The position numbers and the translations under genes are program-made. Positions 38 through 23,491 of a stretch of DNA of 24,000 nucleotides are shown one piece after another. Every line of letters begins with the position of its first letter. The first letter of the stretch is position 1. The notes beneath the pieces were generated by a model. That model was given only the letters and a program-made list of their open reading frames with translations, had not been told where the DNA came from and did no database searches. The stretch covers positions 1 through 24,000 of the forward strand of contig NZ_STGY01000044.1 in the NCBI RefSeq assembly GCF_004912275.1, given 5' to 3'. Source of the stretch: Glycomyces buryatensis (lineage in GTDB: Bacteria > Actinomycetota > Actinomycetes > Mycobacteriales > Micromonosporaceae).

Positions 38-370
38 CTAAAGGTCGTCGCCGGGCAGTTCGGGCATCCGCGCCGCCACCCATTCGTCCACGGCCCCACC
101 GTTTTCGATCGCCGCTTGGAGACCGTTCATCATGCCGTGGAGGGTCCCGCGCAGGTACTGGAGGTTGCGCCAGGTGGTGGCGTGGAAGTCGGCGTACTCG
201 GCCCGCGCGTGCTCGACTCCCCCTGAGCCGGAACCGAACGCGGGCGCATTGGCCAGCGTCCCGGAGTCCAGGGACGGGAGGATCTCACCCTCCAGCTCCT
301 CTAGCAGCTCGCCGAGGAACTGCCGGTAGCGTTCGAGTGCCGCCGGGTCGTACGTGCGGGAGTTCGCCAT
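38..370 (-). CDS. Small (110 aa) helical-hairpin protein associated with a WXG/T7SS-type cassette; function unknown
   Basis: ORF 38..451 trimmed to the ATG at 370 (MANSRTYD...), which follows a GAGAGGAAGG Shine-Dalgarno-like sequence. It lies 13 nt after the upstream gene. Two predicted helices are separated by a Gly/Ser loop (FGSGSGG). GC3 is high. Confidence 0.6.
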   Translation of the reverse strand: MANSRTYDPAALERYRQFLGELLEELEGEILPSLDSGTLANAPAFGSGSGGVEHARAEYADFHATTWRNLQYLRGTLHGMMNGLQAAIENGGAVDEWVAARMPELPGDDL

Positions 371-383
371 CTCGCCTTCCTCT

Positions 384-1865: not shown

Positions 1866-1988
1866 GGAGACGCACCTCGACGTGACGGAGCCAGAGTTCT
1901 CCTCAGCGTAGCGACTCCCGGCGGGCTCCGCCATCCCTTGATGGTCCCCAATGCACGACCGGGGCCGGAACGGACTAGGGCCGGCGTC

Positions 1989-2285
1989 TCACCCGAGTTC
2001 GGCGTAGTGCTCGGCGGCGATCGCGGCGGCGGCGTCCTCGGCTTGGCCCTGAGCTGCCGTGATGGCGGCCTGGAGTTCGGCGGCGAGGCTCTCTCGATCG
2101 GTGACGCGCAGGATGTTCTTCTCCAGGAAGACGATCCCGACGAGCCTTCCGCGCAGGTTCACGCAGGCCCGGGCGTGTCCCGACTCGGTGAGGTGCTCGA
2201 ACGTCTCGTGCTCGCGCCGGGCGAGTGCCGCTTCGATGCGCTGCATGACCTCGCGGGCGCGAGGGTCGGCGAATCGGTCGGTCAT
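1989..2285 (-). CDS. YbaB/EbfC-like small protein (98 aa), ESX/WXG-cluster associated type
   Basis: ORF 1989..2429 trimmed to the ATG at 2285, preceded by GAGGAGG. An ATGA overlap couples it to the upstream gene. The sequence pattern (ACVNLRGRLVGIVFLEKNIL ... LAAELQAAITAAQ) resembles the YbaB fold. Confidence 0.65.
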   Translation of the reverse strand: MTDRFADPRAREVMQRIEAALARREHETFEHLTESGHARACVNLRGRLVGIVFLEKNILRVTDRESLAAELQAAITAAQGQAEDAAAAIAAEHYAELG

Positions 2286-2719
2286 GGCCGCCTCCTCGAT
2301 TCGCCTTCCGTGAGGTCGGCGGCCCCGCGCTCCCGCTCCGTCTCGGCGGCGTCCCAGGCGGCCAGCAGCGACGCGGCGAGCGCGTGGTTGCCGGCCCCGG
2401 AGGCGGCGACGTCGAACTGGATCTTGCACAGGCGCCCGCTCGAATCGATGGCGATGGCGGTCAAGGAGTTCTCGTCGGTTCCGACGTAGCGGGCCTTGGC
2501 GAACTTCTCCAGCACTGCCTGCGCATCGGCGAACTGCTCGGCGAACGCTTCGACGTCGCCGCGGGCGGGCGGGTCGTTCAGGAGTCGCTGGGCGTTCTCC
2601 CAGTTCTCGTCGTGGGGAAGCTTCTCGAGCGTGGCGCGGGCTTCATCGATTTGCAGCTCATAGTCATCGGGCACACCCAGGTGCGCCTTGGGTGGTGCTC
2701 CGTCGTCTGGGGGTGTCAC
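2282..2719 (-). CDS. YbaB/EbfC-like protein (145 aa), second tandem copy
   Basis: GTG start at 2719 with GGAG 6 nt upstream. The YbaB-like core is TAIAIDSSGRLCKIQFDVAA ... LAASLLAAWDAA. It overlaps the next gene by 4 nt. Confidence 0.6.
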   Translation of the reverse strand: MTPPDDGAPPKAHLGVPDDYELQIDEARATLEKLPHDENWENAQRLLNDPPARGDVEAFAEQFADAQAVLEKFAKARYVGTDENSLTAIAIDSSGRLCKIQFDVAASGAGNHALAASLLAAWDAAETERERGAADLTEGESRRRP

Positions 2720-2764: not shown

Positions 2765-3772
2765 TTACCGGCGCCCTGCGACCTTTTCCAGATCCCGATC
2801 CGCCGGCGGCCGGGGCGGCCGGGCTCCCGTGCCGACCAGCGTTCGGCCCTCGGACGGGTCGTGATCGTCGCGGCCACGTTGGCGCAATCGGGTGATGAGG
2901 AGCGGGCCTCCGAACGCGGTCGCCAGCGAGGCATTGATGAACACGAAGGTGAGCAGGTCGAATTTCAGCGGGGAGACCGCCACTGCCGCGATGTACGTCA
3001 AGCTCGGCTGGATCGAGTACAGCAGGGTCATGAACAGCGGCGCGGTGCGCTGCATGCCGATCTGCAGCAGGTACAACGGCAGAGCGATGCCAGCCACGGC
3101 GACCGCGGCGATGAAACCCAGCCGCCCGGCCGCGACGATCTCGACCAGCTCCGCGGGTCGCAGCAGCAGGATCGCCAGGGCCGCCATCCAGGTCAGGTGG
3201 AACCGGTGGGCCATCACGAAGACCGGGCTGATCCGCTCCCGCCCCAGCCGGTAGGACAGCAGCGGGATGGTGGCGAACAGCCCGCCCGCGATGAACGCGA
3301 CCCCCGTTCCCAGGACGAACGACCGGTCGAACGCGATCTGGCCGATACTCAGGGACCGGCTGGTCACCGCCATCACGAACAGGAGCGCTACGGAACCGAC
3401 GCACAGCTCGACGACGACATGGCGCCGCTGCCCCTTCGCGAAGCCGATGCAGGACACGACCAATGGCGCCATGCCGATGCCGATGGCCGAAGCCAGCGGG
3501 GCGGGGATCAACGAATACGACCAGTACAGCCCCAGAAAGGCCACCGCGGTGGACACGTTCAGATAGACCAGCAGCCGACGTGTGTCCCGGCGCAGCGACT
3601 CGGGTCGGGTGGAGCGCCGCACACCGGTGATCACATTGCAGACGACCGCGCAGGAGGCGAAGGCGCAGAACGACAGCAGCATGCTCTCGGTGCCACCGAT
3701 ATTGCCGGTCAGGAACCCATTGCCCGACGCCTGCAGGACCACGGCCGCGACGATGAGCACCACGCCGGGCAT
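2765..3772 (-). CDS. DMT/EamA-like multi-pass membrane transporter (335 aa)
   Basis: About 10 hydrophobic segments in two halves, typical of the drug/metabolite transporter superfamily. Its ATG directly abuts the TAG stop of the ATP-grasp gene (TAGATG at 3770-3775). Confidence 0.7.
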   Translation of the reverse strand: MPGVVLIVAAVVLQASGNGFLTGNIGGTESMLLSFCAFASCAVVCNVITGVRRSTRPESLRRDTRRLLVYLNVSTAVAFLGLYWSYSLIPAPLASAIGIGMAPLVVSCIGFAKGQRRHVVVELCVGSVALLFVMAVTSRSLSIGQIAFDRSFVLGTGVAFIAGGLFATIPLLSYRLGRERISPVFVMAHRFHLTWMAALAILLLRPAELVEIVAAGRLGFIAAVAVAGIALPLYLLQIGMQRTAPLFMTLLYSIQPSLTYIAAVAVSPLKFDLLTFVFINASLATAFGGPLLITRLRQRGRDDHDPSEGRTLVGTGARPPRPPADRDLEKVAGRR

Positions 3773-5005
3773 CTAGACGCTCGTCATCTCGTACAGGCGC
3801 GCCGAGTCCTCAAGTCGGTGTACCCGTTCGACATCGGCTATCACCGCCGTCGGGTCTGGATCGACGAAATAGGCCACCCCCGCGCTGGCAACGTTCAGCA
3901 GCCGGTTCACCACTTCGGTGTCCTTTTTAGGCAGTTTAGAGAAACTGTGGAAGGTGCGCATCCGGCGAATCAGGTCGAGGCCCGGCATGGCTTTGATCGA
4001 GCCGTCGCTGGGTGTCTGGAGGGAGACGGTGGCCAGACATTGGTGCGGCCGGTAAGGCGCGGTAACCCGGTCCTTGAACACGTTGCCGTCGAGCACCGAA
4101 TCGGCCAGTAGTGTGGCCTGGCTGTATCCGAACGAGCGGAAGAAGACGTCCGGAGGCAGCACCGGCCCTCCCAAACGGGAGTTGACCTCGATCAGCCTCG
4201 GCCCCTCCGCGGTAAAGCGGACCTCGGTGTTGGAGGCGCCCTCGGTGACACCCAGCGCGTCCAGGCACCGCAACGTGTACTCGACCACCGCCTTATCGTC
4301 AGAGTTCAATTCCGTGAGCATGCGCAGGCTGCGCCAGACCGGAACTCCATCGAATTCGTCGAAACGGTTGAGCGCTACGGAGCAGAGCGCGTGCCGTCCA
4401 TTGCGAGTCACCATATTGATGCTGTACTGCGGCCCGGAAAGGTACTCCTGCAAGACCACCGACTCGTTCGTGATCCGCAGCAGATTGGATCGACCCAGGA
4501 TCGCGGCGACGGCCCGAGCGGCCTGGTCGGGCGTGTCGCATACCGCCAGTCCGTCGCTGCCGCCGCTGGAACTGGGTTTGACCACGATCGGATAGGAGCA
4601 GAACGCCTCCAGCGCTGCGGGAACCGCCGACGCTTCGCTGACCACCGCGGTCTTCGCGACCGGGATTCCGCGGGATTCCACTGCTCGGATCATCTTGAGC
4701 TTGTCGCGGCGGGCGCCGTCGAGGGCGAGGTCATTGTGCGGGAGCCCAAGGGACGCAGCCAGCCGATCGGCGAGGTCGACGCCCATTTCCCCGCCCGGCA
4801 GGACTGCGGTCGTGCCGCGGCGCCGCAGTTCAGCGCGGGTCTGCTCGAACGAACGGTAGATCAGCTTTCCACCCGGCGCCGGGTCGATGTCGTACTGGTG
4901 CTGCCATTGAGGCTCATAGATGTGGAAAGTGGAAACTCCGCGTTCACCGAAGGCGTCCGCCAGGTTAATTCCACTGGAGAACAAGTCGACCAATGCGATT
5001 TCCAT
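3773..5005 (-). CDS. ATP-grasp domain ligase (~410 aa), L-amino-acid-ligase-like
   Basis: ATP-grasp motifs are present: IVVKPSSSGGSDG (Lys plus Gly-rich loop), VLQEYLSG (hinge) and RLIEVNSRLGG (Mg/ATP-binding E-x-N). The start is uncertain: ATG 5005 (MEIALVD, AGAGG upstream), with alternatives ATG 5026 and GTG 5041. Confidence 0.8.
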   Translation of the reverse strand: MEIALVDLFSSGINLADAFGERGVSTFHIYEPQWQHQYDIDPAPGGKLIYRSFEQTRAELRRRGTTAVLPGGEMGVDLADRLAASLGLPHNDLALDGARRDKLKMIRAVESRGIPVAKTAVVSEASAVPAALEAFCSYPIVVKPSSSGGSDGLAVCDTPDQAARAVAAILGRSNLLRITNESVVLQEYLSGPQYSINMVTRNGRHALCSVALNRFDEFDGVPVWRSLRMLTELNSDDKAVVEYTLRCLDALGVTEGASNTEVRFTAEGPRLIEVNSRLGGPVLPPDVFFRSFGYSQATLLADSVLDGNVFKDRVTAPYRPHQCLATVSLQTPSDGSIKAMPGLDLIRRMRTFHSFSKLPKKDTEVVNRLLNVASAGVAYFVDPDPTAVIADVERVHRLEDSARLYEMTSV

Positions 5006-5503
5006 TGAAATTCTACCTCTGTTCATTTCATCACTTCTCACCCGCGGCCATAGGAATGGCCGGTTCGGCGCCGCATCGCAATGGTGCGCAGGCTATTGCC
5101 GAATCGTTTCGCGAGCGAGCGAGCGACTGCCGGGTAATGGTGGAGGTGCCGGACCGAAGTCGGCGCGACAGGAGGAATCAGGTCGTTCGGTACTGGGGAC
5201 CGTGAATATCCATTGGCGATCAACGGGGATCACGGTGACATCATGGAGCGTAACGAGAATGGAGCGCGTCCGCTTGACACGGCGAGAATCGGAAACGTCT
5301 TCCTCCCCGATTCAACGGCGTTTCGCCACTCTCCGTGACCAGCGAGCGGCACTCACCAGCGACCTCTCGGTGAGACATCACGCTCGGTAATCAGATCACG
5401 ATATGATAACGGTTCAGATTCTCCACCGGTTCCGCCTGGCGGGCAAGGGAGAGCGACCTTGGAGATTCTCGACCTCCACCGGCCGACGGCGGCGTGCACT
5501 GGC

Positions 5504-5878
5504 TCATCGAACCTCGACCACGTACAACGTATCGGGGCTCATTCGGTCACCGTAATCCTCGGTGACGATGCCCGCCTCCGCCAGCAGACGCCCGATCCAC
5601 TCGATGGCTTCCGAATCAGACCCGATGTCGCCCATGACCTCCGGATAGCCGCGGTCCCCGGCGTTGTACGCCGCCCGCGCCGCGGCGCCCCGGGCTGGCG
5701 GTGTCCAGTAGAAGAGGATGCCCCGAAAATCATCGTCATTCTCCAGCGAGACGGACACGGCTCTGTGGTCCGGCCAGACGGGGTCGGAGCACCAGGGAAT
5801 ACCGGCCTTATCAAGGCATGCAACCACTGCGGCCTTGGCTTTCTTGAGCTCCTGATAGGAAGCACTCTGCAGCGACAT
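5504..5878 (-). CDS. Immunity-like paralog A (124 aa) of a five-member tandem family
   Basis: ATG at 5878 with GGAGG 7 nt upstream. It shares the family motifs AGIPW, RG(I/V)(L/F)FYW, AGI and a (S/N/D)P-x-TL-x-V C-terminus with the ORFs at 5912, 6279, 6870 and 7663. Confidence 0.7.
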   Translation of the reverse strand: MSLQSASYQELKKAKAAVVACLDKAGIPWCSDPVWPDHRAVSVSLENDDDFRGILFYWTPPARGAAARAAYNAGDRGYPEVMGDIGSDSEAIEWIGRLLAEAGIVTEDYGDRMSPDTLYVVEVR

Positions 5879-5911
5879 CGATGACCTCCGGTGCGAACGG
5901 GCTCGATTCAG

Positions 5912-6289
5912 TCACGGCGCCCAGACGACTTCAAGCGTGAACGGATCAGCGACATCATCGGTGTCTCTGGTGGGGATGCCGGCCCTCATGAGGATATCGG
6001 AGATCCGCTCGACACCTTCCTTCTCCATCTGCGCAGTGCGATCGATACCGAGGTCGTCCCAGGCACCGGTCTTCCAAGCCATCATGGCCTGGGCCGAATC
6101 CGATCGAGCCAGGAACCAGTTGATGAACACGCCGCGTTCACCCTCGTCCATCTCAACCGTGACCTGCGCTGCGGCAAGACCGGGTCGATTGAAGCCTTCA
6201 AACCACGGAATTCCGGCTTCTCCCAGGCACGCAACAACAGAGGCCTTGACGCGCTGGATCTCTTCCCGCGTAGCGTTCTCAAGCGACAC
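5912..6289 (-). CDS. Immunity-like paralog B (~125 aa)
   Basis: Motifs: AGIPWFEG, RGVFINW, AWDD, AGIPTRDTDD, DPFTLEVVWAP. The GTG at 6289 gives MSLENATREEI, which aligns with paralog A (MSLQSASYQEL). The alternative is the TTG at 6301 (ORF-track start). It overlaps the end of paralog C. Confidence 0.65.
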   Translation of the reverse strand: MSLENATREEIQRVKASVVACLGEAGIPWFEGFNRPGLAAAQVTVEMDEGERGVFINWFLARSDSAQAMMAWKTGAWDDLGIDRTAQMEKEGVERISDILMRAGIPTRDTDDVADPFTLEVVWAP

Positions 6290-6683
6290 TGATGATCTCA
6301 AGCGTGTAGGGATTCATGTCGTCCTTCAATTCCCGGTTCAGAATTCCCGCAGAGTGAAGCACCACGGAGAGTCTCCTCGCCCATTGTTGTTCAAGTGACG
6401 TGGCCTGATCAAACGAAGGGTCATCCCACTCACCTGCCTTCCAAGCGGCCATCGCCGATGCCTCTTCGGATCGAGCCGGTCTCCAATAGACGAACACTCC
6501 GCGCCCACCGTCATTATTGTCAAGCATTACGTGCGCAGCACCGGTGTCCAGCGGAGGAAGCAAGTCTTCATACCAAGGTATTCCAGCATCGTCCAGTGAC
6601 GCGGTTACCTTGTCGAATATCCGCTCCAGCTCCTCGAACGAGGCATCCTCTAGTTCATGCATGGCTTCAACATATCGATACAT
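6279..6683 (-). CDS. Immunity-like paralog C (~127-134 aa)
   Basis: Motifs: AGIPWYED, RGVFVYW, GEWDD, AGILNRE, NPYTLEIISVA. ORF 6279..6812 is trimmed to the ATG at 6683 (GAGGA 10 nt upstream). The ATG at 6662 (MHELEDASFEEL) aligns best with the paralogs. The longer N-terminal extension in the track overlaps a relic of another copy in a different frame. Confidence 0.65.
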   Translation of the reverse strand: MYRYVEAMHELEDASFEELERIFDKVTASLDDAGIPWYEDLLPPLDTGAAHVMLDNNDGGRGVFVYWRPARSEEASAMAAWKAGEWDDPSFDQATSLEQQWARRLSVVLHSAGILNRELKDDMNPYTLEIISVA

Positions 6684-6708
6684 GTGGTCACAGTCCTCGG
6701 TGTGCAGC

Positions 6709-6822
6709 TCACCCACCCGACAGCGTCCCCGGAGCACTGACGACCTCCAGCATGTATGGGGCGAAGACGTTCTCCGCCGCCAGAGTGCGGCGGCGGCCGG
6801 GCCGCGACTCATTCGAGTTTCC
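6709..6822 (-). pseudogene. Possible 3'-end relic of a sixth immunity-like paralog
   Basis: The open frame between TAG (6823-6825) and TGA (6709-6711) translates to ...RTLAAENVFAPYMLEVVSAPG... The segment PYMLEVVSAP matches the family C-terminus (paralog B: DPFTLEVVWAP*). There is no start codon and no N-terminal part. Confidence 0.35.
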
Positions 6823-6869
6823 CTAGCGGGTAGGAATTCCAGGTCTGGCGCGGGCCTGCTTGATCGGTC

Positions 6870-7661
6870 CTAGCGGATGCCGGTTACACGGAGGGTGTAC
6901 GGGGAGCAGTTGTCCTGCAAGTCCTCGGTGAGGACGCGCTCCTTCATCAGCGCCACGGCCAGCTCATGAAGCTTGTGCTGCTTGATCTCGCCGGCCTCGG
7001 CCAGTGCGGAGTCATCGAGCTGGTTGTCCGCGAACGCCTGCACCACACGGCTGTTCAGCGGCTCGCCTACGAACCAGGACAGGTACACGCCGCGGCCCTC
7101 GTCCTCGAGCTGGTCGACGACTATCTCGACCCCGGGTTCAGTCCCGCGCTCCTGCTCCGGGAATACGACGTAACCAGCTCGGCCCAACCGCTCGCCGACC
7201 GCGTCGACCGTCGCGGCGAAAGGACCGAATTCGGCCTTCCCGTCGGGGAATCCTTCCGCGTCACGGATCATGGCGCGCAGCACTTCGACTGAGGCATTGT
7301 TGAGCAGTGCGAGCTCTCGCAGGTCATCCGCGGTCGGCTCGCCCTCCATGTCGAAGAACTCGGCCGTATAGCTCACTGCACCGGGATCGACACCCGCACG
7401 AGTGAGCGCCACCTCCGCGGCAACGCTCGGCTGCCGCTCGCTGTAGATCTCAACGATCCGCGCCGAAGCGCCACGGGAGGCAAGTCGCTCCAGCAACTCG
7501 ATCTCCACTGGCTTCTTACCGATACTCCGAGCGGTGAGCACAGTCCCGTCGGCAAGCCGAACGGCAGCATAGTTACGTCGCACCGGACTCCACCCCGAAG
7601 GGGAGTCACTTTGCCTGGCCCGAAAGGCCACCGCGCTGAGTTCCAGGCTGTCGATCGACAT
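6870..7661 (-). CDS. Fusion protein (263 aa): N-terminal degenerate deaminase-like module plus C-terminal immunity-like paralog D
   Basis: The ATG at 7661 lies 1 nt after the upstream stop, and GGAGGA sits in the upstream gene's last codons. The C-terminal half carries family motifs (RGVYLSWF, SPYTLRVTGIR). The N-terminal half has the spacing of a cytidine-deaminase-fold H-A-E...P-C-x-x-C, but reads P-V-E (7503-7511) and, 24 residues later, P-S-V-A-A (7416-7430). Confidence 0.7.
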   Translation of the reverse strand: MSIDSLELSAVAFRARQSDSPSGWSPVRRNYAAVRLADGTVLTARSIGKKPVEIELLERLASRGASARIVEIYSERQPSVAAEVALTRAGVDPGAVSYTAEFFDMEGEPTADDLRELALLNNASVEVLRAMIRDAEGFPDGKAEFGPFAATVDAVGERLGRAGYVVFPEQERGTEPGVEIVVDQLEDEGRGVYLSWFVGEPLNSRVVQAFADNQLDDSALAEAGEIKQHKLHELAVALMKERVLTEDLQDNCSPYTLRVTGIR

Positions 7662-7662
7662 G

Positions 7663-8046
7663 TCAGTCCTCCTGCATAACTTCCAGGGTGAAGGGATTCA
7701 TAGGGTCATCAGTGTCCCTGGTGAGGATACCGGCTGCGCTAAGCGCGGCTGCGATGGTTTCCATCCCGTGCTCGGTCTTGGTTCCGACATCATCAATCTC
7801 CGGATTATCCCAATCGCCACCCTCAAAAGCCTCCACCGCCACGCACCTCTCGTTGCGACCTGGCAACCAGAAGACGAAGACTCCACGGTCACCAGGCATA
7901 TCATCAAGGGCGACAATCGCAGCCGCGTGATCCGGCAACCTGTCAGCATCATTAACCCACGGGATCGCGGCAGCCTCGAGCGCACAGGTCACCCGCTCAA
8001 AAGTCTGCTTTAGCTCTTCAAGCGGGACGTTTTCCAGGTCCCTCAC
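7663..8046 (-). CDS. Immunity-like paralog E (127 aa)
   Basis: GTG at 8046 with GAGG 7 nt upstream. Motifs: AAIPWVND, RGVFVFW, GDWDN, AGILTRDTDD, NPFTLEVMQED. Confidence 0.7.
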   Translation of the reverse strand: MRDLENVPLEELKQTFERVTCALEAAAIPWVNDADRLPDHAAAIVALDDMPGDRGVFVFWLPGRNERCVAVEAFEGGDWDNPEIDDVGTKTEHGMETIAAALSAAGILTRDTDDPMNPFTLEVMQED

Positions 8047-8062
8047 AGTGCAGCCTCGCCTT

Positions 8063-8536
8063 TCAATGTTCGGTTATGTCCCCAGCATGTTCAGGACCGA
8101 GCACCGGTGGAAGCTGCGGATATCGACTGCGATACCGCTGGACGACTCTCCGACTCGACTCCGAGAGCTGCTTAACAGATGCCGGCCGGGCAGTTTCACC
8201 GTCGGGCTCAAAGTCGACAGTCCAGATCGCTACTCCAAACTCGTTGCCAGTCGCCCGAAGCAGAGTCCCGTCGTCCCTGAAAACACGCGAGATGCCATGG
8301 AGATGGCCTTTTCGGTACCACTCCTCGAAGACAAGGTCGCCATCCTCGTCGATCTCCCCTGTCGGGCCGTCTCGTACGCCGTCTTTGAAGCTCAGGAACT
8401 CGAATCCCCCATCGGACCGCTCCTCGCCGAGCACACCATCGAACAAGTAGTCGCCACGCCAATACATGGAATTGTCATCGATGGTCACGTCATCGCCAGA
8501 CGTTTCCAAAACTCTGGGATCGTAGTCAGGTTTCAT
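8063..8536 (-). CDS. MORN-repeat-variant protein (157 aa), YwqK-type antitoxin/immunity candidate
   Basis: It has repeated Y/F-x-x-G-x-x-(D/H)-G units (FKDGVRDGPTGEIDEDGDLVFEEWYRKGHLHGISRVFRDDGTLL), as in YwqK-family immunity proteins. Its start is 9 nt after the stop of the deaminase gene. Confidence 0.65.
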   Translation of the reverse strand: MKPDYDPRVLETSGDDVTIDDNSMYWRGDYLFDGVLGEERSDGGFEFLSFKDGVRDGPTGEIDEDGDLVFEEWYRKGHLHGISRVFRDDGTLLRATGNEFGVAIWTVDFEPDGETARPASVKQLSESSRRVVQRYRSRYPQLPPVLGPEHAGDITEH

Positions 8537-8545
8537 ATCACTACT

Positions 8546-9271
8546 CTATCCTAAGAAGCCGGTCTTATTTCCATACGGCCGGTCCCAGCCGTCCCAAGCA
8601 CCATCAGCCCCATCGAGCATCTGCGCACAGTTCTCGCAGCATGCCATTCGATCTCCATAACCCTCGGAGCCTTCCTTGTTCACTTTGACGTTCTCGACCA
8701 TGAATTCACTGAGATCAGGGTCTCTACCGTCACTTCGTGCATCACGTAGCGCTTCGTTCATCCCTCGCACTTCCGCATGTTGGCCGGGCACTCCATGATC
8801 GACTTCTATATCAGGGAGATCGGACCCCCTGGGGTTCGGCATGGTCTCGGGCTCCAGCTTCTTCCAACTGGGGTCACCATCGTCATATTTCTTGAACCGC
8901 TCCTTGAGTGGCGGTTCAAGAGATTCTTCGGTCACATCCATTTTCGTGTTGTGGTTGTAGTAAATACGACCACTTTCGCGGTCCCAGACGGCACTCATGC
9001 ACGGTTGACGCCTTCCAGGGCCCCAATACTCCTTGTATCGGTCGTCACTGACCTCTGCGAGCTTCTGAAGCAGCGCATCTCGCAGTCGTGCCCTGTCTGC
9101 AGCGGGGTCGCCGGTGGGGGTGAGATGTGTCGGCGCTTTATTGGGGTTGGAAGGTTTTACAGGATCCTTCTTCTTTTTCTTCTTCTTATTGGGATTCTTG
9201 AAATCCGCGTATGGATCAGTTACCGATTTGTCTTCGCGACCCAGACTGCCCGAGCCGTTTTTTTCCACCAT
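8546..9271 (-). CDS. Stand-alone YwqJ-like nucleic-acid deaminase toxin (241 aa) with N-terminal Lys-rich disordered region
   Basis: Zinc-deaminase signature: GQHAEVRGMNEAL (H-A-E codons at 8771-8779) and MACCENCAQM (C-x-x-C within 8627-8641). A beta-strand segment (CMSAVWDRESGRIYYNHN) precedes it. GC is about 50% against the ~2/3 backbone. An immunity-type gene follows. Confidence 0.7.
   Translation of the reverse strand: MVEKNGSGSLGREDKSVTDPYADFKNPNKKKKKKKDPVKPSNPNKAPTHLTPTGDPAADRARLRDALLQKLAEVSDDRYKEYWGPGRRQPCMSAVWDRESGRIYYNHNTKMDVTEESLEPPLKERFKKYDDGDPSWKKLEPETMPNPRGSDLPDIEVDHGVPGQHAEVRGMNEALRDARSDGRDPDLSEFMVENVKVNKEGSEGYGDRMACCENCAQMLDGADGAWDGWDRPYGNKTGFLG
9165..9187 (-). repeat. 23-nt homopurine (AAG)3-AAA-(AAG)3 tract encoding K7 within the deaminase gene
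   Basis: The plus strand reads tccttcttctttttcttcttctt. On the coding strand this is AAGAAGAAGAAAAAGAAGAAGGA (N-K7-D). Confidence 0.9.
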
Positions 9272-9305
9272 TTCGAGTTCTCTCTTGAGAGGTCGGAATT
9301 GAGGG

Positions 9306-9836
9306 CTAAGAAGGGCTGAGGCCGATAGCGGTGCGAATGATGCCGTAGGCGGCGGTGTCCTGTGCGATCAAGGCCGCATACATGCTGGCCAGCGCCGCCG
9401 TGAAGGCCACTGCACCGGATTGGTAGGCCGCCAGCACCGCTGGAGCGGCCGGGCCTGCCGATGAGACTTGCGACCACTGACTCGGACCCAAGATCACCAT
9501 CGGGGTAGGCAGGACCCTATAGCCGATCGCCTCCGCCGATTGCTTGGTCGCCTTCAGCGCCGTCACCGTGGCCATCATGGTTGCGCCCATGCTCTCCAGC
9601 GCGCCCGCGCACACCACCAGTGCCGCATCACTGCGCCCTATGAAGCCAGCAACATCGCCTCCCCAGCGCACCATCTCCTGGTAGTCATCGCCCTGCCAGC
9701 TCGCGCCCATCCCCGCGACTTCCCCTGCATGCTGCGCACCCAAAGTGGTCACCTTCCCGGCCGCAGCCGCAATGGCCGCACCGAGGGACATCAACTGGGC
9801 CGGATTGGCGTCAAGCGCCTGCTGAAACGTGGGCAT
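9306..9836 (-). CDS. WXG/LXG-like protein (176 aa), putative T7SS carrier/partner for the downstream toxin
   Basis: ORF 9306..9863 trimmed to the ATG at 9836 (MPTFQQALD), 1 nt after the upstream stop (TGAcATG). It has a W-x-G motif (GASWQGDDY) in a helical hairpin, then an Ala-rich helical C-terminal extension. GC3 stays high to the last codons. Confidence 0.6.
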   Translation of the reverse strand: MPTFQQALDANPAQLMSLGAAIAAAAGKVTTLGAQHAGEVAGMGASWQGDDYQEMVRWGGDVAGFIGRSDAALVVCAGALESMGATMMATVTALKATKQSAEAIGYRVLPTPMVILGPSQWSQVSSAGPAAPAVLAAYQSGAVAFTAALASMYAALIAQDTAAYGIIRTAIGLSPS

Positions 9837-9837
9837 G

Positions 9838-10197
9838 TCAGGCCCGCACCGACGGTCCGCCATTGATGGTGGGCACTTGGAAACCGCTCAGGTCAGATTC
9901 GAAGGGTTTGAAGTCGGCGGCTCCGTCTTCATCGGCCTTGTCCCAGCTACGTGCGACTTTCGTGAGCACGCTGTGGGTGTCAGACAAGTGCTCGTGGAGC
10001 TCCTGCATGTCCTCTTTGAAGTCGTCGGCAAACTCCTTCGCCCCATCTGCGCACATGAAGCCGCGGTTGGCGGTTTCCGCCCGCTGGGCCGCGCGCACCA
10101 CGTCCTGCGGCAGGCTCTTCGCCTCGCTCGACAACTGCTTCATCTTCTGCGCACCGGAAAGTATCCGGGCGCTCTCGATCATCACAATGCCGACCAT
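9838..10197 (-). CDS. Small (119 aa) alpha-helical protein, WXG100-like / LXG-associated helper candidate
   Basis: ORF 9838..10239 trimmed to the ATG at 10197, with GGAGG 8 nt upstream. It is predicted all-helical (…EFADDFKEDMQELHEHLSDTHSVLTKVARSWDKADEDG…) and tightly coupled to the WXG/LXG-like gene. Confidence 0.55.
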   Translation of the reverse strand: MVGIVMIESARILSGAQKMKQLSSEAKSLPQDVVRAAQRAETANRGFMCADGAKEFADDFKEDMQELHEHLSDTHSVLTKVARSWDKADEDGAADFKPFESDLSGFQVPTINGGPSVRA

Positions 10198-10275
10198 GGC
10201 CGAACCTCCAGAGACACAACGCAAGCACAGAGCGCTCACATTTTATCGTCTGGTCGCCAAGGCAGGGGTACGCGA

Positions 10276-11130
10276 TCAGCGAGTGGCTTCCGCCCCAGCC
10301 TGTTGGGTTCCGGTGTCTCCGTTGCCGTTCTCCAGTGGCCATACCGTGGCCTCGACCGAGCCGACAAGTTCCAGCGGGCCCACCAGTGACGCCGTTCGCG
10401 CGACGGTGAAGTCGTCCAGAGCGAGCAGGCTGATGCCGCCGCGGCTTTGGGCAACTGCGGCGTAGTAGGCACCGGTGCCCCGGTCCTGGAAGACCCAGCC
10501 CGGTCTGGTGTCGGTCGGAATCGTGGGCACGCCTCCCGCCCGCCGCGGGTCCGGCAGGGCGCCGGTGGAAGCGGTGTCGGGCGCGAACGGCGACGTCGGG
10601 TAGTGCGGCTGGGGTGCCGAGCCTTCTGGGTCGGTCGGGGTTTCGTTGTAATCAGGCACTTGATACCTCGTGGGATCGCCGGATACAGGGATGGGCGGCG
10701 GGTTCATCGGCTGGTCGGGGACCGCGATGAGGGCGCGGACCTCCACCTTGCCGGCGACGGTGTTGACGGCGACCACTCCGATGCCGAGTGCCACCAGGTC
10801 AAGGCCCACCGCGAGGAGGACGCGCAGGTTCGGGTCGAGTCCGGTACCGAAGCGCGCCAGAGAGAACAGTGCAACAGCAAGCGCGAACACGACGAGTCCG
10901 GCCATCGCACCGGCGAGCGCGATCGGCCGCGAGACCCGCGGGGCGGGGGCGGACGGCCACTTCTCGGCGGCGCGGACACCGCCGAGTGCGATCGCCGAGA
11001 GCGCGGCCAGCGCGAGACCGGCGACGGCGAAGGCGATCGCGGCGGCGGTGAGCCGGCCGGCGATGTCGTCGATGTAGTCCACGTAGGGCTCCAGATCGTC
11101 GGGCTTGCGTTGTGTCGGTTCGGGCTCCAT
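10276..11130 (-). CDS. Membrane protein (284 aa), about 4 TM helices plus a Pro-rich linker and C-terminal extracytoplasmic domain; function unknown
   Basis: Four hydrophobic stretches include AAAIAFAVAGLALAALSAIAL, IALAGAMAGLVVFALAVALF and LLAVGLDLVALGIGVVAV. It is the first gene of the minus-strand toxin operon, divergent from the T4SS operon. Confidence 0.55.
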   Translation of the reverse strand: MEPEPTQRKPDDLEPYVDYIDDIAGRLTAAAIAFAVAGLALAALSAIALGGVRAAEKWPSAPAPRVSRPIALAGAMAGLVVFALAVALFSLARFGTGLDPNLRVLLAVGLDLVALGIGVVAVNTVAGKVEVRALIAVPDQPMNPPPIPVSGDPTRYQVPDYNETPTDPEGSAPQPHYPTSPFAPDTASTGALPDPRRAGGVPTIPTDTRPGWVFQDRGTGAYYAAVAQSRGGISLLALDDFTVARTASLVGPLELVGSVEATVWPLENGNGDTGTQQAGAEATR

Positions 11131-11183
11131 TGTGCGGCCCGTGCACGCTATCGAGCGTAGGACACCGACCTCCCCCAGTTTAG

Positions 11184-11199
11184 TGTCGGATTCCCGACA
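11184..11199. promoter_or_regulatory. Candidate operator palindrome in the divergent intergenic region between the toxin operon and the T4SS operon
   Basis: The palindrome is TGTCGG-attc-CCGACA (6-bp arms). A TATGAT -10-like hexamer lies at 11316-11321 on the plus strand, with only a weak -35. Purely sequence-based. Confidence 0.2.
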
Positions 11200-11421
11200 T
11201 GGAGTGATCGCCCGCAGGTCATTGCGGCCATTGATCGATTCCGATTCACTTGACGATGCTAGGTTCGCGGTCGCGCGTCGAACCGGCGAACGTGCACTCC
11301 GTCAGGGTCGCGGCATATGATGAGGGCAGACCCCGTGAAGGGTTGGGAGCCAAGAGACATGAGTGAAACTTGCATAACGTGAGGTCCATGTGACCCGTGT
11401 GGCAAGAGATGGGAATGAACG

Positions 11422-11703
11422 ATGAGAGAGACCTTCTGGACCATGGCGGCACACATGTCGCCAGTGGCGTCCGCCGAGATCAATACCAGCGGGATCATCG
11501 GCTTCTTCCTCTCGAAGATCGCCCCGATCCTCCTCGCCATCCTCGGCTTGATCTTCATCGCCCGCGCCAATAAGGGCGAGGTCAGCCGCGTACTCACCTC
11601 CTCCACCATCGCCATCCTCGGCATCGCCTTCATTGCCGGAGCGGTCGTCCTGGTGGCCGTCGGCGGCGGTCTCGTCGACGTCCTCTTCAGCAACGAGGAT
11701 TAA
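11422..11703 (+). CDS. VirB2/TrbC-like small two-TM protein (93 aa), T4SS pilin-like subunit
   Basis: It has two hydrophobic helices (IIGFFLSKIAPILLAILGLIFIA and IAILGIAFIAGAVVLVAV). It is the first gene of an operon containing VirB3-, VirB4- and VirB6-like genes. The start is uncertain (ATG 11422, 11443 or 11455). Confidence 0.5.
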   Translation: MRETFWTMAAHMSPVASAEINTSGIIGFFLSKIAPILLAILGLIFIARANKGEVSRVLTSSTIAILGIAFIAGAVVLVAVGGGLVDVLFSNED

Positions 11704-11787
11704 CCAGCCCCCACACTCCTCGGCGAAGTCCGCTAGCCGAGCCCGAACCATTGCAATACGTACTACCGGCCTGGACGGAGGACGCCA

Positions 11788-12177
11788 ATGCGCTTGCGCA
11801 CCGACGATGACATCTACCGTGCCCGGCTGCTCTACCTCGGCCCTCCCGGCTACACGCTCCCCGTCCACCTCCCCTACGGCCAGTACGGCGCCTTCGCCGG
11901 CCTGCTCGCGCTGTTCATGTTCATCCGCTGGGGCATCACCGGCGACGTCGAGCTCTTCCCCGCCATCGAGATCTCCCTCGCCCTCGTCGCGACCTCGCTG
12001 ATCTTCCGATACGTCGACGCCGACCGCCCCGCCACCAGCGTCCTGCGCACGCTCCTCACCGACTGGAAGCACACCCGCGACGCCGGGCACGAGCAGCGGA
12101 TCCCGGCGTTCACCACCCGGTCGATCCGTCTGCGTCCCACACTCGTTGAGTCCGCCCGACCTGAGGAGCGCCTATGA
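11788..12177 (+). CDS. VirB3/PrgI-like two-TM protein (129 aa)
   Basis: GGACGGAGGA precedes the ATG. It has two TM helices (YGAFAGLLALFMFIRWGI and AIEISLALVATSLIF). An ATGA overlap links it to the VirB4-like ATPase, the usual VirB3-VirB4 arrangement. Confidence 0.55.
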   Translation: MRLRTDDDIYRARLLYLGPPGYTLPVHLPYGQYGAFAGLLALFMFIRWGITGDVELFPAIEISLALVATSLIFRYVDADRPATSVLRTLLTDWKHTRDAGHEQRIPAFTTRSIRLRPTLVESARPEERL

Positions 12178-15100
12178 GCGGCGAGGATCGCCGACAGCCC
12201 GTCGCCAAGTTCTCGGCGCCCCGGCCCCCGGCGCCGGTGCGCGACCGGGAACGGCACCGCGACGAGGAGGACGACGACACCACGGCGCTGGCCGACGCGA
12301 TCTTCCGCTCGGAACCGGCGCCGGCGCCCGCGCCGCACCCCCCGACCGCCAACGCCCAGCCTCCGGCCTCACCCCCGCCGACCTCCCACATCTTGGGAGT
12401 CCAGCAGGGCACGCCTCAGGACGCCGCCCGACACGCGATGCCACCTGCGTCGCCGACGCCGCCGTCCACCGGTGGTCCACAGAGTTATCCACAGAATCAG
12501 GCAAGTTATCCACAGGGGTATCCACAGCGTTACCCACAGGCTCCGACCAGCGGGAATCCACAGAGTTATCCACAACAAGCACCGGGTTATCCACAGGGAA
12601 CCGGAAGTTATCCACAGGCCGGTAACCAGCAGCGCGGCAGTGTTTCCACAGGTCACCGGAATGACGCCCAAACCGGTCGGAACGGGAAGGTCCCGAGCCA
12701 GGACCTCGTCCCGATCAGGCAGGCGAACACCGACGCCGCGACGCTCGACAAGGGCGACGCCAAACCGACCCGCGTCCCCAAACCGGCGAAGAAGGAGAAG
12801 GAGCGCCAGCCGCTCCGCGAGCTCTCGCTGACCGAGATCGCCGGGCACGCGACCTTCACGCCCGCGTCGGTCACCGCCTGGTACGTCCTGCCCGGCGTCC
12901 GCTGGTCCTTCCGCCCCGATCTGGAGCGCGAAGCCCTCATCACCGCGATCTCGGAGCAGTTCGCCGGCCTCGCCGGGATGCGCATCCACATGCGTCGCAC
13001 CACCAAGCCGTTCGCCGCCGACGACTGGGCCCGCAACGTCGACCGGTACACCGCCAAGCCGCTGCGCACCGCCCCCGGCGGCACCTCCTGGGCCGAGCAC
13101 CTGGTCGCCGCTCAGCGGCACCTGCACTCGCTCTCCCACGCCGAGGGCCAGACCTTCCTGGGTATCACCTTCGCCCGCCGGTCCACCTTCGACAACCTGG
13201 GCGAGAAGGTCGGCCGCGTCTTCGGCCGCGGCACCAAGCTCTCCGAGCGTGAGCGCATCGAGAAGCGCAGCCAGCAGTTCGACGAGGTCCTCGGTTCCTT
13301 CGGGGTCCGCGCTCGCCGCGCCACCACCGCCGATCTCGAATGGCTCGTCTTCCGCTCCGTCGCCCTCGGCATGGAGCCCCCGCGCCTGCTCTCCGGCTCC
13401 GCCTCGGACTGGGACACCGGCGACGTCCTCGCCCTCACCGAGTCCATCGAGCGCTACCGCAGCCCCTACGGCTCCACGGTCAAGCTCGTCAACCGCCTCA
13501 CCGGCGAGGAGAAGCACACCGCCGTCCTGACCGTCGGCCGCATGGAGGAACTGGAGATCCCCCAGCGCCACGAGCCGTGGCTGCACTTCCACGAGCGCTG
13601 CCCCTGGCCGCTCGAGATCTCCAGCCGCGTCGACATCCTCGGCCCCGGCGAGGCCTTCCGCGACCTCGACCACCGCCTGCGCCTCATCCGTTCACAGCAG
13701 CGCGACTACGACGAGCACGCCATGGACGCCCCGCCCGAGCTCCAGCGCCTCGCCGAGCGCGCCCTCGGCGTCGGCGACGAGATGACCACCGGCCTGCCCA
13801 TCGACGCCGCCCGCGCCCACGGCTGGCACCGCATCGCCGTCACCGCCGACACCAAAGAGGAATGCCTGGAGCGCGCCCGCACGCTCATGAACATGTACCA
13901 GCGGGACATGCGCATCAGCCTCCAGCACCCCAAGAACCAGGACTGGCTCGCCCGCGAGTTCATCCCCGGTGAGCCCGTCGCCGGCACCGGCTACATCCGA
14001 CGGATGCCCGTCAAGCTCTTCGCCGCCGCCCTCCCCCAGGCCGCCTCCACGGTCGGCGACCAGCGCGGGGACCTGATCGGCCGCACCGCCGGCACCAGCC
14101 GCAGGCCCGTCTTCCTCGACCTCCACTTCGCCACCGAGGTCCGCGAGAAGTCCGGCCTGAGCGTCTTCGTCGCCGAACCCGGCGGCGGCAAGTCCACGCT
14201 CATGGGCGCGCTCGGCTACCTGGCCGCCAAGCGCGGCGTCCAGGTCACCCTGCTCGACCCGTCCGGTCCGCTCGCCCGCCTCTGCGACATGCCCGAGCTC
14301 GCGCCGCACTCGCGCGTGCTCAACCTGACCGGCTCCGAATACGGGACGCTCGCGCCCTACGCGCTCATCCCCTCGCCCAGACGCGAGCACTACGCCGATT
14401 CGCCCGACGGCCAGCGCGAATACGACATAGCCGTCTCCAACGCCCGCTCCGAGCGGCGCATGCTGGTCCAGGACATCTGCGCCATGCTCCTGCCCCCGCA
14501 GATCCAACGCGAGGCGAGCACCGCCAGGCTGCTGCGCCACGCGGCCCGCCACGTCCCGGCCGAAGAGGACTCCGCCCTCGAGGACATCGTCGAATCGCTC
14601 CAGGACGCCGAGGACCACGTCACCGGCGACGGCGCCGAACTCGCCGCGCTCCTGCTCGACACCGCCGAGATGCCGCTCGCGAAGCTCTTCTTCGGCAACG
14701 CCGACAAGGGCGTCCTCGAGGACGACACCGCGCTCACCGTCATCACCATGTCCGGTCTGCGCCTGCCCGACCTGGCCATCGAGCGCGAGTACTGGAGCGC
14801 CGAAGAGGCCCTGGCCTTGCCAATGCTCCACACCGCCCACCGCCTCGCGGTGCGCCGCGCCTACGGCGGGGACATGAACCGCCGCAAGCTCGTCGGCCTG
14901 GACGAGGCCCACTTCATGGAGGGCTGGAAGTCCGGCCGCAGCTTCCTGGTCCGCCTCGCCCGCGACTCCCGCAAGTGGAACCTGGCCGCGCTCGTCGCCA
15001 GCCAGAACCCCAAGGACATCCTGAGCCTCGACGTCCAGAACCTCGTCTCCACCGTGTTCGTGGGCCGCATCGCCGAGGACCGCGACGTCGCGGAGGAAGC

Positions 15101-15314
15101 GCTCAAGATGCTCCGCGTCCCCACCGGAGTCGGCTACGAGAACGTCCTCGCCTCACTCAGCGAGGTGGCCGCCGAAGACACCGAACGCCTCCGCTACCGC
15201 GAGTTCGTCATGCGCGACGTCGACGGCCGCGTCCAACGCATCCGCGCCGACTTCAGTTATGTGAGAGGACTACTCGACTACCTGAACACCACGCCCGGGG
15301 AGGAGAAGCGGTGA
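12174..15314 (+). CDS. VirB4/TraE/PrgJ-like T4SS ATPase (1046 aa) with a ~215-aa disordered N-terminal extension
   Basis: Walker A is AEPGGGKST (GGGKST at 14181-14198). Walker B is KLVGLDEAH (DE at 14901-14906). A downstream LVASQNPKD motif is present. GC3 is high from the ATG at 12174, so the extension is translated. The extension is Pro-rich, with S/G/R-Y-P-Q repeats. Confidence 0.85.
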   Translation: MSGEDRRQPVAKFSAPRPPAPVRDRERHRDEEDDDTTALADAIFRSEPAPAPAPHPPTANAQPPASPPPTSHILGVQQGTPQDAARHAMPPASPTPPSTGGPQSYPQNQASYPQGYPQRYPQAPTSGNPQSYPQQAPGYPQGTGSYPQAGNQQRGSVSTGHRNDAQTGRNGKVPSQDLVPIRQANTDAATLDKGDAKPTRVPKPAKKEKERQPLRELSLTEIAGHATFTPASVTAWYVLPGVRWSFRPDLEREALITAISEQFAGLAGMRIHMRRTTKPFAADDWARNVDRYTAKPLRTAPGGTSWAEHLVAAQRHLHSLSHAEGQTFLGITFARRSTFDNLGEKVGRVFGRGTKLSERERIEKRSQQFDEVLGSFGVRARRATTADLEWLVFRSVALGMEPPRLLSGSASDWDTGDVLALTESIERYRSPYGSTVKLVNRLTGEEKHTAVLTVGRMEELEIPQRHEPWLHFHERCPWPLEISSRVDILGPGEAFRDLDHRLRLIRSQQRDYDEHAMDAPPELQRLAERALGVGDEMTTGLPIDAARAHGWHRIAVTADTKEECLERARTLMNMYQRDMRISLQHPKNQDWLAREFIPGEPVAGTGYIRRMPVKLFAAALPQAASTVGDQRGDLIGRTAGTSRRPVFLDLHFATEVREKSGLSVFVAEPGGGKSTLMGALGYLAAKRGVQVTLLDPSGPLARLCDMPELAPHSRVLNLTGSEYGTLAPYALIPSPRREHYADSPDGQREYDIAVSNARSERRMLVQDICAMLLPPQIQREASTARLLRHAARHVPAEEDSALEDIVESLQDAEDHVTGDGAELAALLLDTAEMPLAKLFFGNADKGVLEDDTALTVITMSGLRLPDLAIEREYWSAEEALALPMLHTAHRLAVRRAYGGDMNRRKLVGLDEAHFMEGWKSGRSFLVRLARDSRKWNLAALVASQNPKDILSLDVQNLVSTVFVGRIAEDRDVAEEALKMLRVPTGVGYENVLASLSEVAAEDTERLRYREFVMRDVDGRVQRIRADFSYVRGLLDYLNTTPGEEKR
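12473..12650 (+). repeat. Array of ten co-oriented DnaA-box-like 9-mers, five of them perfect TTATCCACA, inside the VirB4-like CDS
   Basis: Perfect TTATCCACA at 12485, 12506, 12566, 12587 and 12608. One mismatch: GTATCCACA at 12518 and TTACCCACA at 12530. Weaker: TGGTCCACA at 12473, GAATCCACA at 12554 and GTTTCCACA at 12642. All spacings are multiples of 3 (12/21/24 nt), except 34 nt before the last, weakest site at 12642. Confidence 0.9.
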
Positions 15315-17224: not shown

Positions 17225-17227
17225 CCC

Positions 17228-21500: not shown

Positions 21501-21673
21501 ACGAGCAACTTACCGTCCCACCCCAACCCCCACAACACTCCGCCTTACTTGTCGCGGAAGCAATCCGGATAGTTCTCAATCGAGATCCCCTACCCAGAGA
21601 CCCCACCGATGAAGCTTCCAGTCTGCCATCGGTGTTGCCGGGTGCATCCGTTCTCCGGGGACTAGCAGGAGGG

Positions 21674-23374: not shown

Positions 23375-23491
23375 TGGCCGTTAGAACTGAAAGAGGACTT
23401 CCTCAATCTGCTCCGGTGTGATTTGAATACAGCTTGCCACTTCGGGACCGAAAGTAGACATGGGTGGTATTGCGTCCTTCCGTACGGAATA

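Follow-up and report, generated by a model that had tools for sequence, protein, structure and literature searches.

A predicted YwqJ-family deaminase toxin encoded apart from its putative WXG carrier in Glycomyces buryatensis

The DNA analysed here is a stretch of 24,000 nucleotides (nt) from Glycomyces buryatensis (contig NZ_STGY01000044.1, positions 1 to 24,000), referred to below as the window. The contig is present also in sequencing run SRR10030181, alongside contigs bearing proteins named G. buryatensis. On its minus strand, within the window, four neighbouring genes were found, encoding a predicted zinc deaminase toxin, two small helical proteins upstream of it and a predicted immunity protein downstream. 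In the order of their transcription, with protein lengths in amino acids (aa), they are:

9838..10197, minus strand: EspC/Tap/Lap-like small helical partner gene, 119 aa from ATG 10197 (gene call of the source contig)
9306..9836, minus strand: gene of the WXG-type carrier (WXG176), 176 aa, putative counterpart of the N-terminal trafficking domain in fused toxins
8546..9271, minus strand: predicted YwqJ-family zinc deaminase toxin gene, 241 aa, PF14431
8063..8536, minus strand: predicted cognate immunity gene (MORN157), 157 aa, identified by conserved pairing and a profile match to the SET7/9 MORN domain

The mechanical open reading frame (ORF) of the EspC-like gene begins at GTG 10239 and would give 133 aa. 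The WXG176 gene is likely to start at ATG 9836, one base past the stop codon of the EspC-like gene, and it ends in a TAG stop that is followed by a spacer of 34 nt and then by the toxin gene in a different reading frame. The deaminase gene and that of its partner are separated by 9 nt (8537..8545).

The 241-aa protein was shown to be a YwqJ-family deaminase with intact catalytic residues. It matched PF14431 (YwqJ-deaminase) with 30.6 bits (E 4.4e-7, cut-off 25.9 bits), the match spanning only positions 65-134 of the 138 in the profile, and no other deaminase model of Pfam, including those of the SCP1.201/DddA type, matched at E<=1. The YwqJ clade is defined by the motifs Gx[CH]xE and CxxC (Iyer et al. 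2011, PMC3239186). These lie in the segments GQHAEVRGMNEAL (residues 163-175) and MACCENCAQM (residues 209-218), where Gx[CH]xE in helix 2 is G163-Q-H165-A-E167 and the zinc CxxC is C212-E-N-C215. An alignment of 11 sequences, reaching down to 22% identity, shows no change at G163, H165, E167, C212 or C215, and H159, in DHGVPG, is a His in 7 of the 11. A first-pass annotation, made from the sequence of this stretch, had proposed such an ORF with H-A-E and C-x-x-C motifs, had placed it in the YwqJ family and had put a partner gene nine nucleotides downstream; its coordinates were exact and all three proposals were confirmed, the pairing of the two genes being conserved across loci.

An AlphaFold2 model of the deaminase (predicted local distance difference test, pLDDT, 74.9) has its domain at about residues 45-241, with a long N-terminal helix (56-74) followed by a beta/alpha core, a two-helix insert (122-130, 154-159) before helix 2, the HAE opening a helix at 166-180 and the CxxC opening another at 213-218; the C-terminus extends 26 residues beyond C215. 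Residues 1-41 (pLDDT <50) form a disordered, basic, Lys/Pro-rich tail, as the first-pass annotation had described it, and the toxin has neither a signal peptide nor a helical targeting domain. When the model was compared with the PDB by Foldseek the top matches were nearly all cytidine, blasticidin-S or dCMP deaminases, none of them significant (best E 0.24 or worse, target TM-score about 0.55). We regard the protein, on its sequence, as a compact (core of about 195 residues) and very divergent member of the YwqJ deaminase clade.

The toxin gene has its own ATG and its complete ORF is kept in at least 10 genomes. In close toxin pairs the ratio of nonsynonymous to synonymous substitution rates (dN/dS) on the catalytic core was 0.07-0.30, which denotes purifying selection. 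The diverged pair L004/L005 (L numbers designate the loci fetched for comparison) gave about 1.0, and no positive selection is claimed for it because an extreme GC content at third codon positions (GC3, about 0.95) compresses dS. A full scan of 1.8 billion representatives with a hidden Markov model (HMM) found toxin relatives of 300 aa or less to make up about 38 of the 85 detectable, so that short forms do not appear to be rare, though some may be fragments. A word-indexed protein search returned a single toxin relative and no relative of the partner, and a plasmid database held no toxin relative and gave partner matches only at E~0.5.

The 157-aa protein encoded directly downstream is predicted to be the cognate immunity protein, and its neutralisation of the toxin is inferred from the following. 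A homologue (33-48% identity) lies directly 3' of the deaminase gene in every one of the 13 loci fetched, which represent 10 distinct loci of Glycomyces, and further homologues lie directly 3' of the toxin in L018 (G. luteolus) and in L025, whose deaminase is only 26% identical to that of the window, so that the pairing is found in at least 12 independent related loci. Over eight loci the mean pairwise identity was 57% for the toxin, 65% for the partner and 78% for the carrier, and toxin and partner distances were correlated (r 0.89), which is supportive only as the pairs are not independent. At L015 (5001..6155), which lies on a further contig of G. buryatensis, a gene of the MORN157 type (33% identity) stands 138 nt behind a WXG176 gene and there is no toxin gene in the interval; the toxin gene appears to have been deleted here, and a partner copy left without its toxin behaves as an orphan immunity gene would.

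As regards its fold, the 157-aa protein had no match in Pfam or PADLOC. A profile of its family matched the N-terminal MORN domain of SET7/9 (1h3i, 1mt6, 1n6c) over residues 30-91 with E-values of 3.5e-7 to 1.7e-6, and the single sequence matched it at E 1e-4, from which MORN-like beta-hairpin repeats are predicted at roughly residues 30-110. WD40 matches that ranked higher in the profile search were set aside as sums of many weak repeats, and a structure model built from the single sequence was unusable (pLDDT 42). The family keeps a C-terminal tail of the form …P..GPE.A.D…H (8063..8110 in the window); an 11-sequence alignment shows its P148, A151 and terminal His157 to be invariant, and two more distant homologues align at these residues. 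One may speculate that this tail reaches the zinc site of the toxin.

The two genes upstream of the toxin were not mentioned in the first-pass annotation. The EspC-like protein matched Pfam T7SS_ESX_EspC (E 2.9e-4), with weaker matches to DUF6507 and WXG100, and is 43-66% identical to the products of the genes in the same position in L006, L014, L015, L016 and L020; for its homologues in L014, L023 and L024 precomputed annotation lists PF10824. The WXG176 protein gave a weak match to Pfam WXG100 (E 0.0065). Its homologues fall in 33 clusters, all of 173-176 aa and with several per genome; those with organism names are all from Glycomyces, some being labelled YukE, and W47-x-G49 does not vary among them. 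The EspC-like gene stood before the WXG176 gene in every locus looked up.

A link between these genes and the toxin came from G. luteolus. The full HMM scan contained one protein, P0009 (346 aa, locus L018), that joins both halves in a single polypeptide: residues 15-160 are 36% identical to the window WXG176 (E 2e-27), and the C-terminal half is 31% identical to the window deaminase (E 3e-21) and matches positions 3-134 of the PF14431 profile with 55.1 bits. Its gene has an EspC-like homologue upstream (25% identity, E 1e-12) and is flanked also by a MORN-like homologue (E 3e-14). Since P0009 and its flanking homologues reproduce the same arrangement, the four genes of the window are the fission version of a three-gene WXG-toxin cassette. 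The fusion of the toxin domain to an N-terminal helical WXG/LXG domain, present in P0009, is absent in the window. We also considered that carrier and toxin of the window might be joined by frameshift or read-through, and rejected this in view of the TAG stop, the spacer and the change of frame, because the toxin frame is closed 0-1 codons before the ATG in L004, L005 and L013, and because the overlap sequence is not conserved and there is no slippery site. On this gene context the window toxin would be part of a split, type VII-style polymorphic toxin system and not an orphan. The first-pass annotation had correctly seen it as a separate ORF; its description of the deaminase as stand-alone cannot be kept, as a WXG-type gene pair always precedes it and in G. 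luteolus carrier and toxin are one polypeptide. It is new that one genus consistently keeps carrier and toxin in separate genes and has a fused sister form as well.

The neighbourhoods of WXG176 paralogues that were looked up each showed the EspC-like gene, the WXG176 gene and a small, separate toxin gene. The toxins differ, and WXG176 paralogues with differing downstream toxins are 52-76% identical. Behind WXG176 the following were found:

L014: GH-E nuclease, 192 aa
L016: EndoU_bacteria, 142 aa
L020 and L021: XOO_2897 deaminase, 186 aa
L022: XOO_2897 deaminase, 105 aa, then SUKH-4
L019, L023 and L024: unknown proteins, 147-164 aa, then SMI1_KNR4
Window and L006: YwqJ deaminase

The immunity types downstream of these toxins are SUKH-4, SMI1_KNR4, MORN-like and a family, designated par, that is described below. 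PMC3482391 and PMC3239186 catalogue these toxin and immunity families as the C-terminal tips of polymorphic toxins and their immunity proteins.

The deaminase/MORN pair was found also behind a second carrier family, WXG100_2 (PF25547), in at least 9 loci. At the junctions read in these loci there is an overlap of 8-11 nt between start and stop codons, which suggests translational coupling. Homology between the WXG176 and WXG100_2 carriers was considered and rejected (hhalign probability 2.7%).

Two toxins behind WXG176 that are unrelated in fold, the YwqJ-type toxin of L006 (7890..7990) and the XOO_2897-type toxin of L020 (4544..4645), begin with a common N-terminal leader of 34 aa, MTT(G/S)KH..PLPSS, with 47% identity (E 9e-5) and with DNA homology that continues for about 45 nt beyond the ATG. 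The leader may be the peptide by which such toxins dock on the WXG176 carrier.

The composition of the toxin-partner pair sets it apart from its neighbours. GC and GC3 are 0.54 and 0.58 in the deaminase gene and 0.57 and 0.63 in that of the partner, against 0.62-0.66 and 0.77-0.78 in the two upstream genes and 0.70 and 0.82-0.91 in the genes of the membrane protein and the conjugation ATPase further upstream. The drop that the first-pass annotation had reported is therefore real, although smaller than its hand-counted 50% had indicated. Between the window and L006 (Glycomyces sp. NPDC046736) the membrane protein is 74%, the EspC-like protein 64% and WXG176 69% identical, whereas the toxin is only 48% and the partner only 46% identical. 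The DNA homology shared with L006, L020 and L021 continues past the stop codon of the WXG176 gene for about 15-20 nt and breaks off near position 9290, at the point where the GC falls. The foreign composition and this break bear out the cassette swapping that had been suggested for the pair. A new toxin-immunity pair can drop in after the stop codon of the carrier, since carrier and toxin do not share a gene.

What may have been replaced can be seen downstream of the pair and in L020/L021. At the same place on the same element L020 and L021 carry the XOO_2897-type deaminase, followed by a protein of 129 aa, and in the window the immunity gene is followed on the same strand by five paralogous genes, an array that had also been passed over in the first-pass annotation:

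7663..8046, minus strand: par127, first of the five paralogues of a family of about 125 aa, predicted orphan immunity gene for XOO_2897-type toxins
6870..7661, minus strand: par263, a catalytically dead XOO_2897-like deaminase domain (about residues 29-126) in frame with a par immunity domain (about 140-263)
6279..6812, minus strand: par177, par paralogue (152 aa, from 6737, in the gene call of the source contig)
5912..6301, minus strand: par129, par paralogue (125 aa, from 6289, in the gene call of the source contig)
5504..5878, minus strand: par124, par paralogue and last gene of the same-strand array

The five proteins (5504..8046) are 27-40% identical to one another. The 129-aa protein of L020 (5132..5521), encoded directly after the separate XOO_2897 deaminase toxin, is 29.5-36% identical to par127, par129 and par177, with E-values down to 2e-13, and the family is present also in L006 at 9373..10167. 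Conserved in it, over some 125 aa, are A-G-I-P-W, R-G-V-F-x-x-W and P-[YF]-T-L-E. No relatives were found in Pfam or the PDB, and par is, to judge from its sequence and position, a previously undescribed family that probably provides immunity to the XOO_2897 toxin clade. Both immunity families, the MORN-like partner and par, are undescribed and new.

The N-terminal domain of par263 matched Pfam XOO_2897-deam at E 5e-4, below the cut-off, and is 35% identical (E 3e-11) to the active-type toxin of L020, and its C-terminal half aligns with the par family. Its zinc ligands are lost, C-S-E having become P-V-E and P-C-C-N-C having become P-S-V-A-A. The 263-aa protein could be a relic in decay; that it is a decoy, or an immunity protein derived from an inactivated toxin, is also possible. 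The simplest history would be that a low-GC YwqJ/MORN pair was inserted behind the carrier and in front of an XOO_2897/par pair, that the displaced XOO_2897 toxin then decayed and became fused to an immunity domain, and that the further par copies are orphan immunity genes. With a pair of foreign composition standing before an older pair whose toxin is dead and fused, the record of displacement is clear, and this too is new.

Upstream of the cassette lie a further gene of the minus strand and, divergent from it, a conjugation module:

10276..11130, minus strand: 284-aa membrane protein gene, upstream neighbour outside the core cassette, conserved among elements of this conjugative family
11422..18942, plus strand: conjugation module of Gram-positive type, divergent from the toxin operon

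The membrane protein had no Pfam match; it is 74% identical in L006 and L020, and its gene is missing upstream of the WXG176 cassettes in L015, L016 and L022. The conjugation module encodes two small membrane proteins, a TcpF/VirB4-like ATPase of 1046 aa (NF052333, E 1.5e-23; Pfam AAA_10), a CD3337/EF1877-like (VirB6-like) membrane protein of 637 aa, a 180-aa protein and an M23 peptidase. The toxin and conjugation operons diverge from one intergenic region of 290 nt (11131..11421), and the same conjugation genes flank WXG176 cassettes in L006, L020/L021 and L023/L024. A scan of 5200..11800 for promoters and terminators found none above shuffled background.

With moderate confidence we take the locus to be the variable tip of a polymorphic toxin cassette that is split, of type VII (ESX/WXG) style and carried by a conjugative element of Glycomyces. 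The analysis shows the family assignment, the intact catalytic residues, the pairing, the fused relative, the exchange of toxins behind one carrier family, the recombination boundary and the dead relic; the toxicity, neutralisation, substrate, complex formation and export route of the cassette products are what we infer. The four proteins would be made from one operon, and the immunity protein would bind the deaminase and keep it inactive in the producer. The toxin would join the WXG/EspC-like helical pair non-covalently, probably by way of its disordered basic N-terminal tail; the pair would supply a composite type VII targeting signal and the complex would be exported. In a competitor that has no immunity protein the enzyme would then deaminate cytosine in single-stranded DNA (ssDNA), by analogy with YwqJ of Bacillus subtilis.

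We also put forward, more tentatively and as a possibility only, a proposal for the genus, namely that Glycomyces may possess type VII 'cargo' effectors. These would be small toxins, lacking a helical targeting domain, that travel non-covalently on a dedicated WXG carrier with an EspC/Tap-like partner, both encoded immediately upstream, and that have a short, disordered leader at the N-terminus as docking peptide. The locus would be a plug-in slot, partly on conjugative elements, in which recombination at the carrier stop replaces one toxin-immunity pair by another, whatever their fold.

Several observations weigh against the split type VII reading. The window toxin does not have the leader of the L006 and L020 toxins though it stands behind the same type of carrier, and its own tail has a degenerate likeness to the tails of toxins behind WXG100_2 carriers; because of this mismatch between tail and carrier type its recruitment by the present WXG176 neighbour is uncertain. 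The EspC (E 2.9e-4) and WXG100 (E 0.0065) assignments of the two upstream proteins fall below the Pfam cut-offs, and no YxxxD/E export motif was seen on reading these two sequences. No type VII core gene (EccC-type ATPase) lies within the 24-kb window. The abstract of bioRxiv 10.1101/2023.07.29.551094 states that all described type VII substrates have a helical domain of their own, and the export of a toxin without its own carrier domain is therefore without precedent. As for the immunity protein, none of 11 members of the partner family matched Pfam MORN (PF02493) or MORN_2 (PF07661) even at E<=10, and the 157-aa window protein had no NCBIfam match at E<=1; MORN-like in fold, the partner thus cannot be recognised as belonging to the curated MORN/YwqK-type families. 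Of the YwqK/MORN-type identity first given to it, a MORN-like repeat fold is supported only by the SET7/9 profile match, and a place in the curated families is not supported.

Among the other explanations, the cassette could be an intracellular toxin-antitoxin or addiction module. Cells from which the conjugative element is lost would be killed or mutated, which would stabilise the element, and the WXG genes would have an unrelated role, for example in conjugation. Such a module would fit the adjoining conjugation genes, a linkage that recurs in L006, L020/L021 and L023/L024, and a toxin that has neither signal peptide nor helical targeting domain. However, many copies of the toxin module sit in the chromosome, away from any conjugation genes (L001, L004-L013, L015, L016, L022), in P0009 the toxin is fused to a WXG domain, and there was no PADLOC match. 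GH-E, EndoU and XOO_2897 toxins and SUKH-4 and SMI1_KNR4 immunity proteins are, according to PMC3482391, types of secreted polymorphic toxin systems, and arrays of orphan immunity genes are typical of conflict between cells. We consider an addiction module unlikely.

A little less likely still is that the separate toxin ORF is not deployed at all and is kept as a silent reserve, a recombination stock for the tip of a fused toxin elsewhere. Standalone toxin cassettes for recombination are given in the same paper (PMC3482391) as a defining trait of polymorphic toxin systems, and both the abundance of relatives of 300 aa or less (about 38 of 85) and the mismatch of the window toxin tail with its present carrier type would agree with such a role. 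Nevertheless the toxin is the first gene behind the carrier and not a distal orphan, with its own ATG and an ORF that is complete in at least 10 genomes; its catalytic core is under purifying selection in close pairs, and the stop/start overlap in the WXG100_2 loci suggests coupled translation. Moreover all 33 WXG176 homologues are short, so that most genomes would have no full-length fused recipient.

Delivery of the toxin by the conjugative type IV apparatus of the element, or its action during conjugation, for instance on the transferred ssDNA, is very improbable. The divergence of the two operons from one 290-nt region, together with the linkage in four locus types, gives this idea some ground, as does the analogy with YwqJ, an ssDNA enzyme (PMC13648612), since it is ssDNA that conjugation moves. 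But most copies of both carrier types lie away from conjugation genes, partner genes of the WXG/EspC type mark type VII substrates, and neither a relaxase-type nor a type IV signal is known or can be seen. Least credible of all is that the deaminase serves in housekeeping or nucleotide salvage and that its neighbour is unrelated to it. Free-nucleoside cytidine deaminases and blasticidin-S deaminases come nearest to it among solved folds, but these matches are not significant (E>0.2), the only family match is to the toxin clade PF14431, and the strict pairing, WXG context, rapid divergence, foreign composition and fused relative all fit a toxin. A role in defence against phages was considered as well and set aside, as neither toxin, partner, carrier nor par proteins had a PADLOC match.

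The toxin family, its immunity logic and type VII-style polymorphic toxins as such are already known. In B. subtilis YwqJ is an LXG toxin encoded in ywqH-ywqI-ywqJ-ywqK-ywqL, which kills neighbouring cells in a manner dependent on the type VII secretion system of the b type (T7SSb) and on residue E539, and which acts as a cytidine deaminase on ssDNA with minimal activity on double-stranded DNA (dsDNA) (PMC13648612, a preprint of September 2026). N-terminal WXG domains are known to occur on toxins of the YwqJ clade (PMC3239186), and proteins of the 'YwqK family antitoxin' type carry a MORN domain (PMC11005410). The window locus shares with the ywq locus a PF14431 toxin and the succession of small helical partner genes, toxin and cytoplasmic immunity protein, and in its deaminase the His, Glu and Cys residues equivalent to those of YwqJ are retained, as is the additional helix at the N-terminus. 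It differs in that YwqJ has its LXG domain, PT-TG module and deaminase in one polypeptide, whereas the window has a separate carrier of 176 aa and a toxin of 241 aa, and in that it has no endonuclease V gene and an immunity protein which misses the MORN/MORN_2 and NCBIfam models. As the host is an actinomycete, any type VII system serving the window locus would be of the T7SSa (ESX) type and not T7SSb.

In Actinomycetota the Tap/Eat loci encode, besides small helical partners and an immunity protein, a toxin whose N-terminus is a helical bundle, and their toxins are exported in an ESX-4-dependent way (Benedict et al. 2026, PMC13444075). These loci of Mycobacteriales/Actinomycetota resemble the window cassette in their one or two small tap-like genes, helical-bundle targeting module, variable payload (including nucleases) and downstream immunity gene. 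In them, however, the helical bundle is the N-terminus of a toxin of 400-1000 aa, while the window-type carrier is a separate protein of 176 aa with payloads of 105-241 aa; and export and toxicity, which are predicted for the window cassette, have been demonstrated there. The esxF-esxE-cpnT-ift locus of M. tuberculosis is comparable as well. A further parallel is offered by the specialised and cargo effectors of type VI secretion systems (T6SS), in which, as in P0009 and the window respectively, the toxin domain is either fused to the delivery part or a separate neighbour. The secretion machineries are unrelated, though, and for the window an interaction between adaptor and toxin is only proposed. 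A full-text search for 'cargo effector' returned T6SS contexts only and never type VII, and keyword searches of the literature found no type VII 'cargo effector' and no separately encoded LXG toxin domain, a result which does not prove their absence.

DddA (SCP1.201-like) and SsdA are likewise zinc deaminase polymorphic toxins with cognate immunity proteins. They belong to other deaminase clades, the window protein having no SCP1.201 match and no significant match to a solved structure. By analogy with YwqJ a preference for ssDNA rather than dsDNA is expected of the window toxin. The interest for dsDNA base editing that the first-pass annotation had seen in it is weakened by the minimal dsDNA activity of YwqJ, an ssDNA deaminase (PMC13648612).

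Some other genes of the window deserve mention. An island of very low GC (0.49-0.51) at 20526..23878, on the minus strand, seems to be a second type VII-style toxin cassette. It encodes, in this order, a helical WXG/EspC-like protein of 128 aa (TIGR03930, E 0.0097), a helical protein of 318 aa with a QWEGG (WXG) motif, a predicted lipoprotein of 247 aa (…FALSAC…) and a protein of 324 aa; none of them had a Pfam or PADLOC match, and in NCBIfam there was only the weak match to TIGR03930. A third type VII-substrate-like cluster, also on the minus strand, lies at 38..2719. Its first two genes, at 2282..2719 and at about 1989..2285, are for small YbaB/EbfC-like proteins; the gene at 384..1934 specifies a protein of 516 aa whose C-terminus is acidic and which contains an EGWSGPG (WXG) motif, and the one at 38..451 a protein of 137 aa. 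In L020 a single gene of 236 aa is the counterpart of the first YbaB-like gene and apparently of both, the second having been judged by reading. Between these genes and the immunity array, at 2765..5041 on the minus strand, are genes for an ATP-grasp enzyme (422 aa) and a transporter of the EamA family (335 aa). This pair is absent from the corresponding place in L020 and looks like an insertion.

A split carrier and toxin beside a fused sister form in one genus amount to a natural experiment on the recognition of cargo by type VII systems, and the split locus makes it possible to test whether 'cargo effectors' of the type VI style exist in Gram-positive bacteria. The YwqJ clade, whose founding member has only recently been shown to act on ssDNA, gains what appears to be a compact and divergent member. 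Toxins that have a gene to themselves are readily exchanged for one another, and it becomes of interest how a toxin with no carrier domain attached would be exported.

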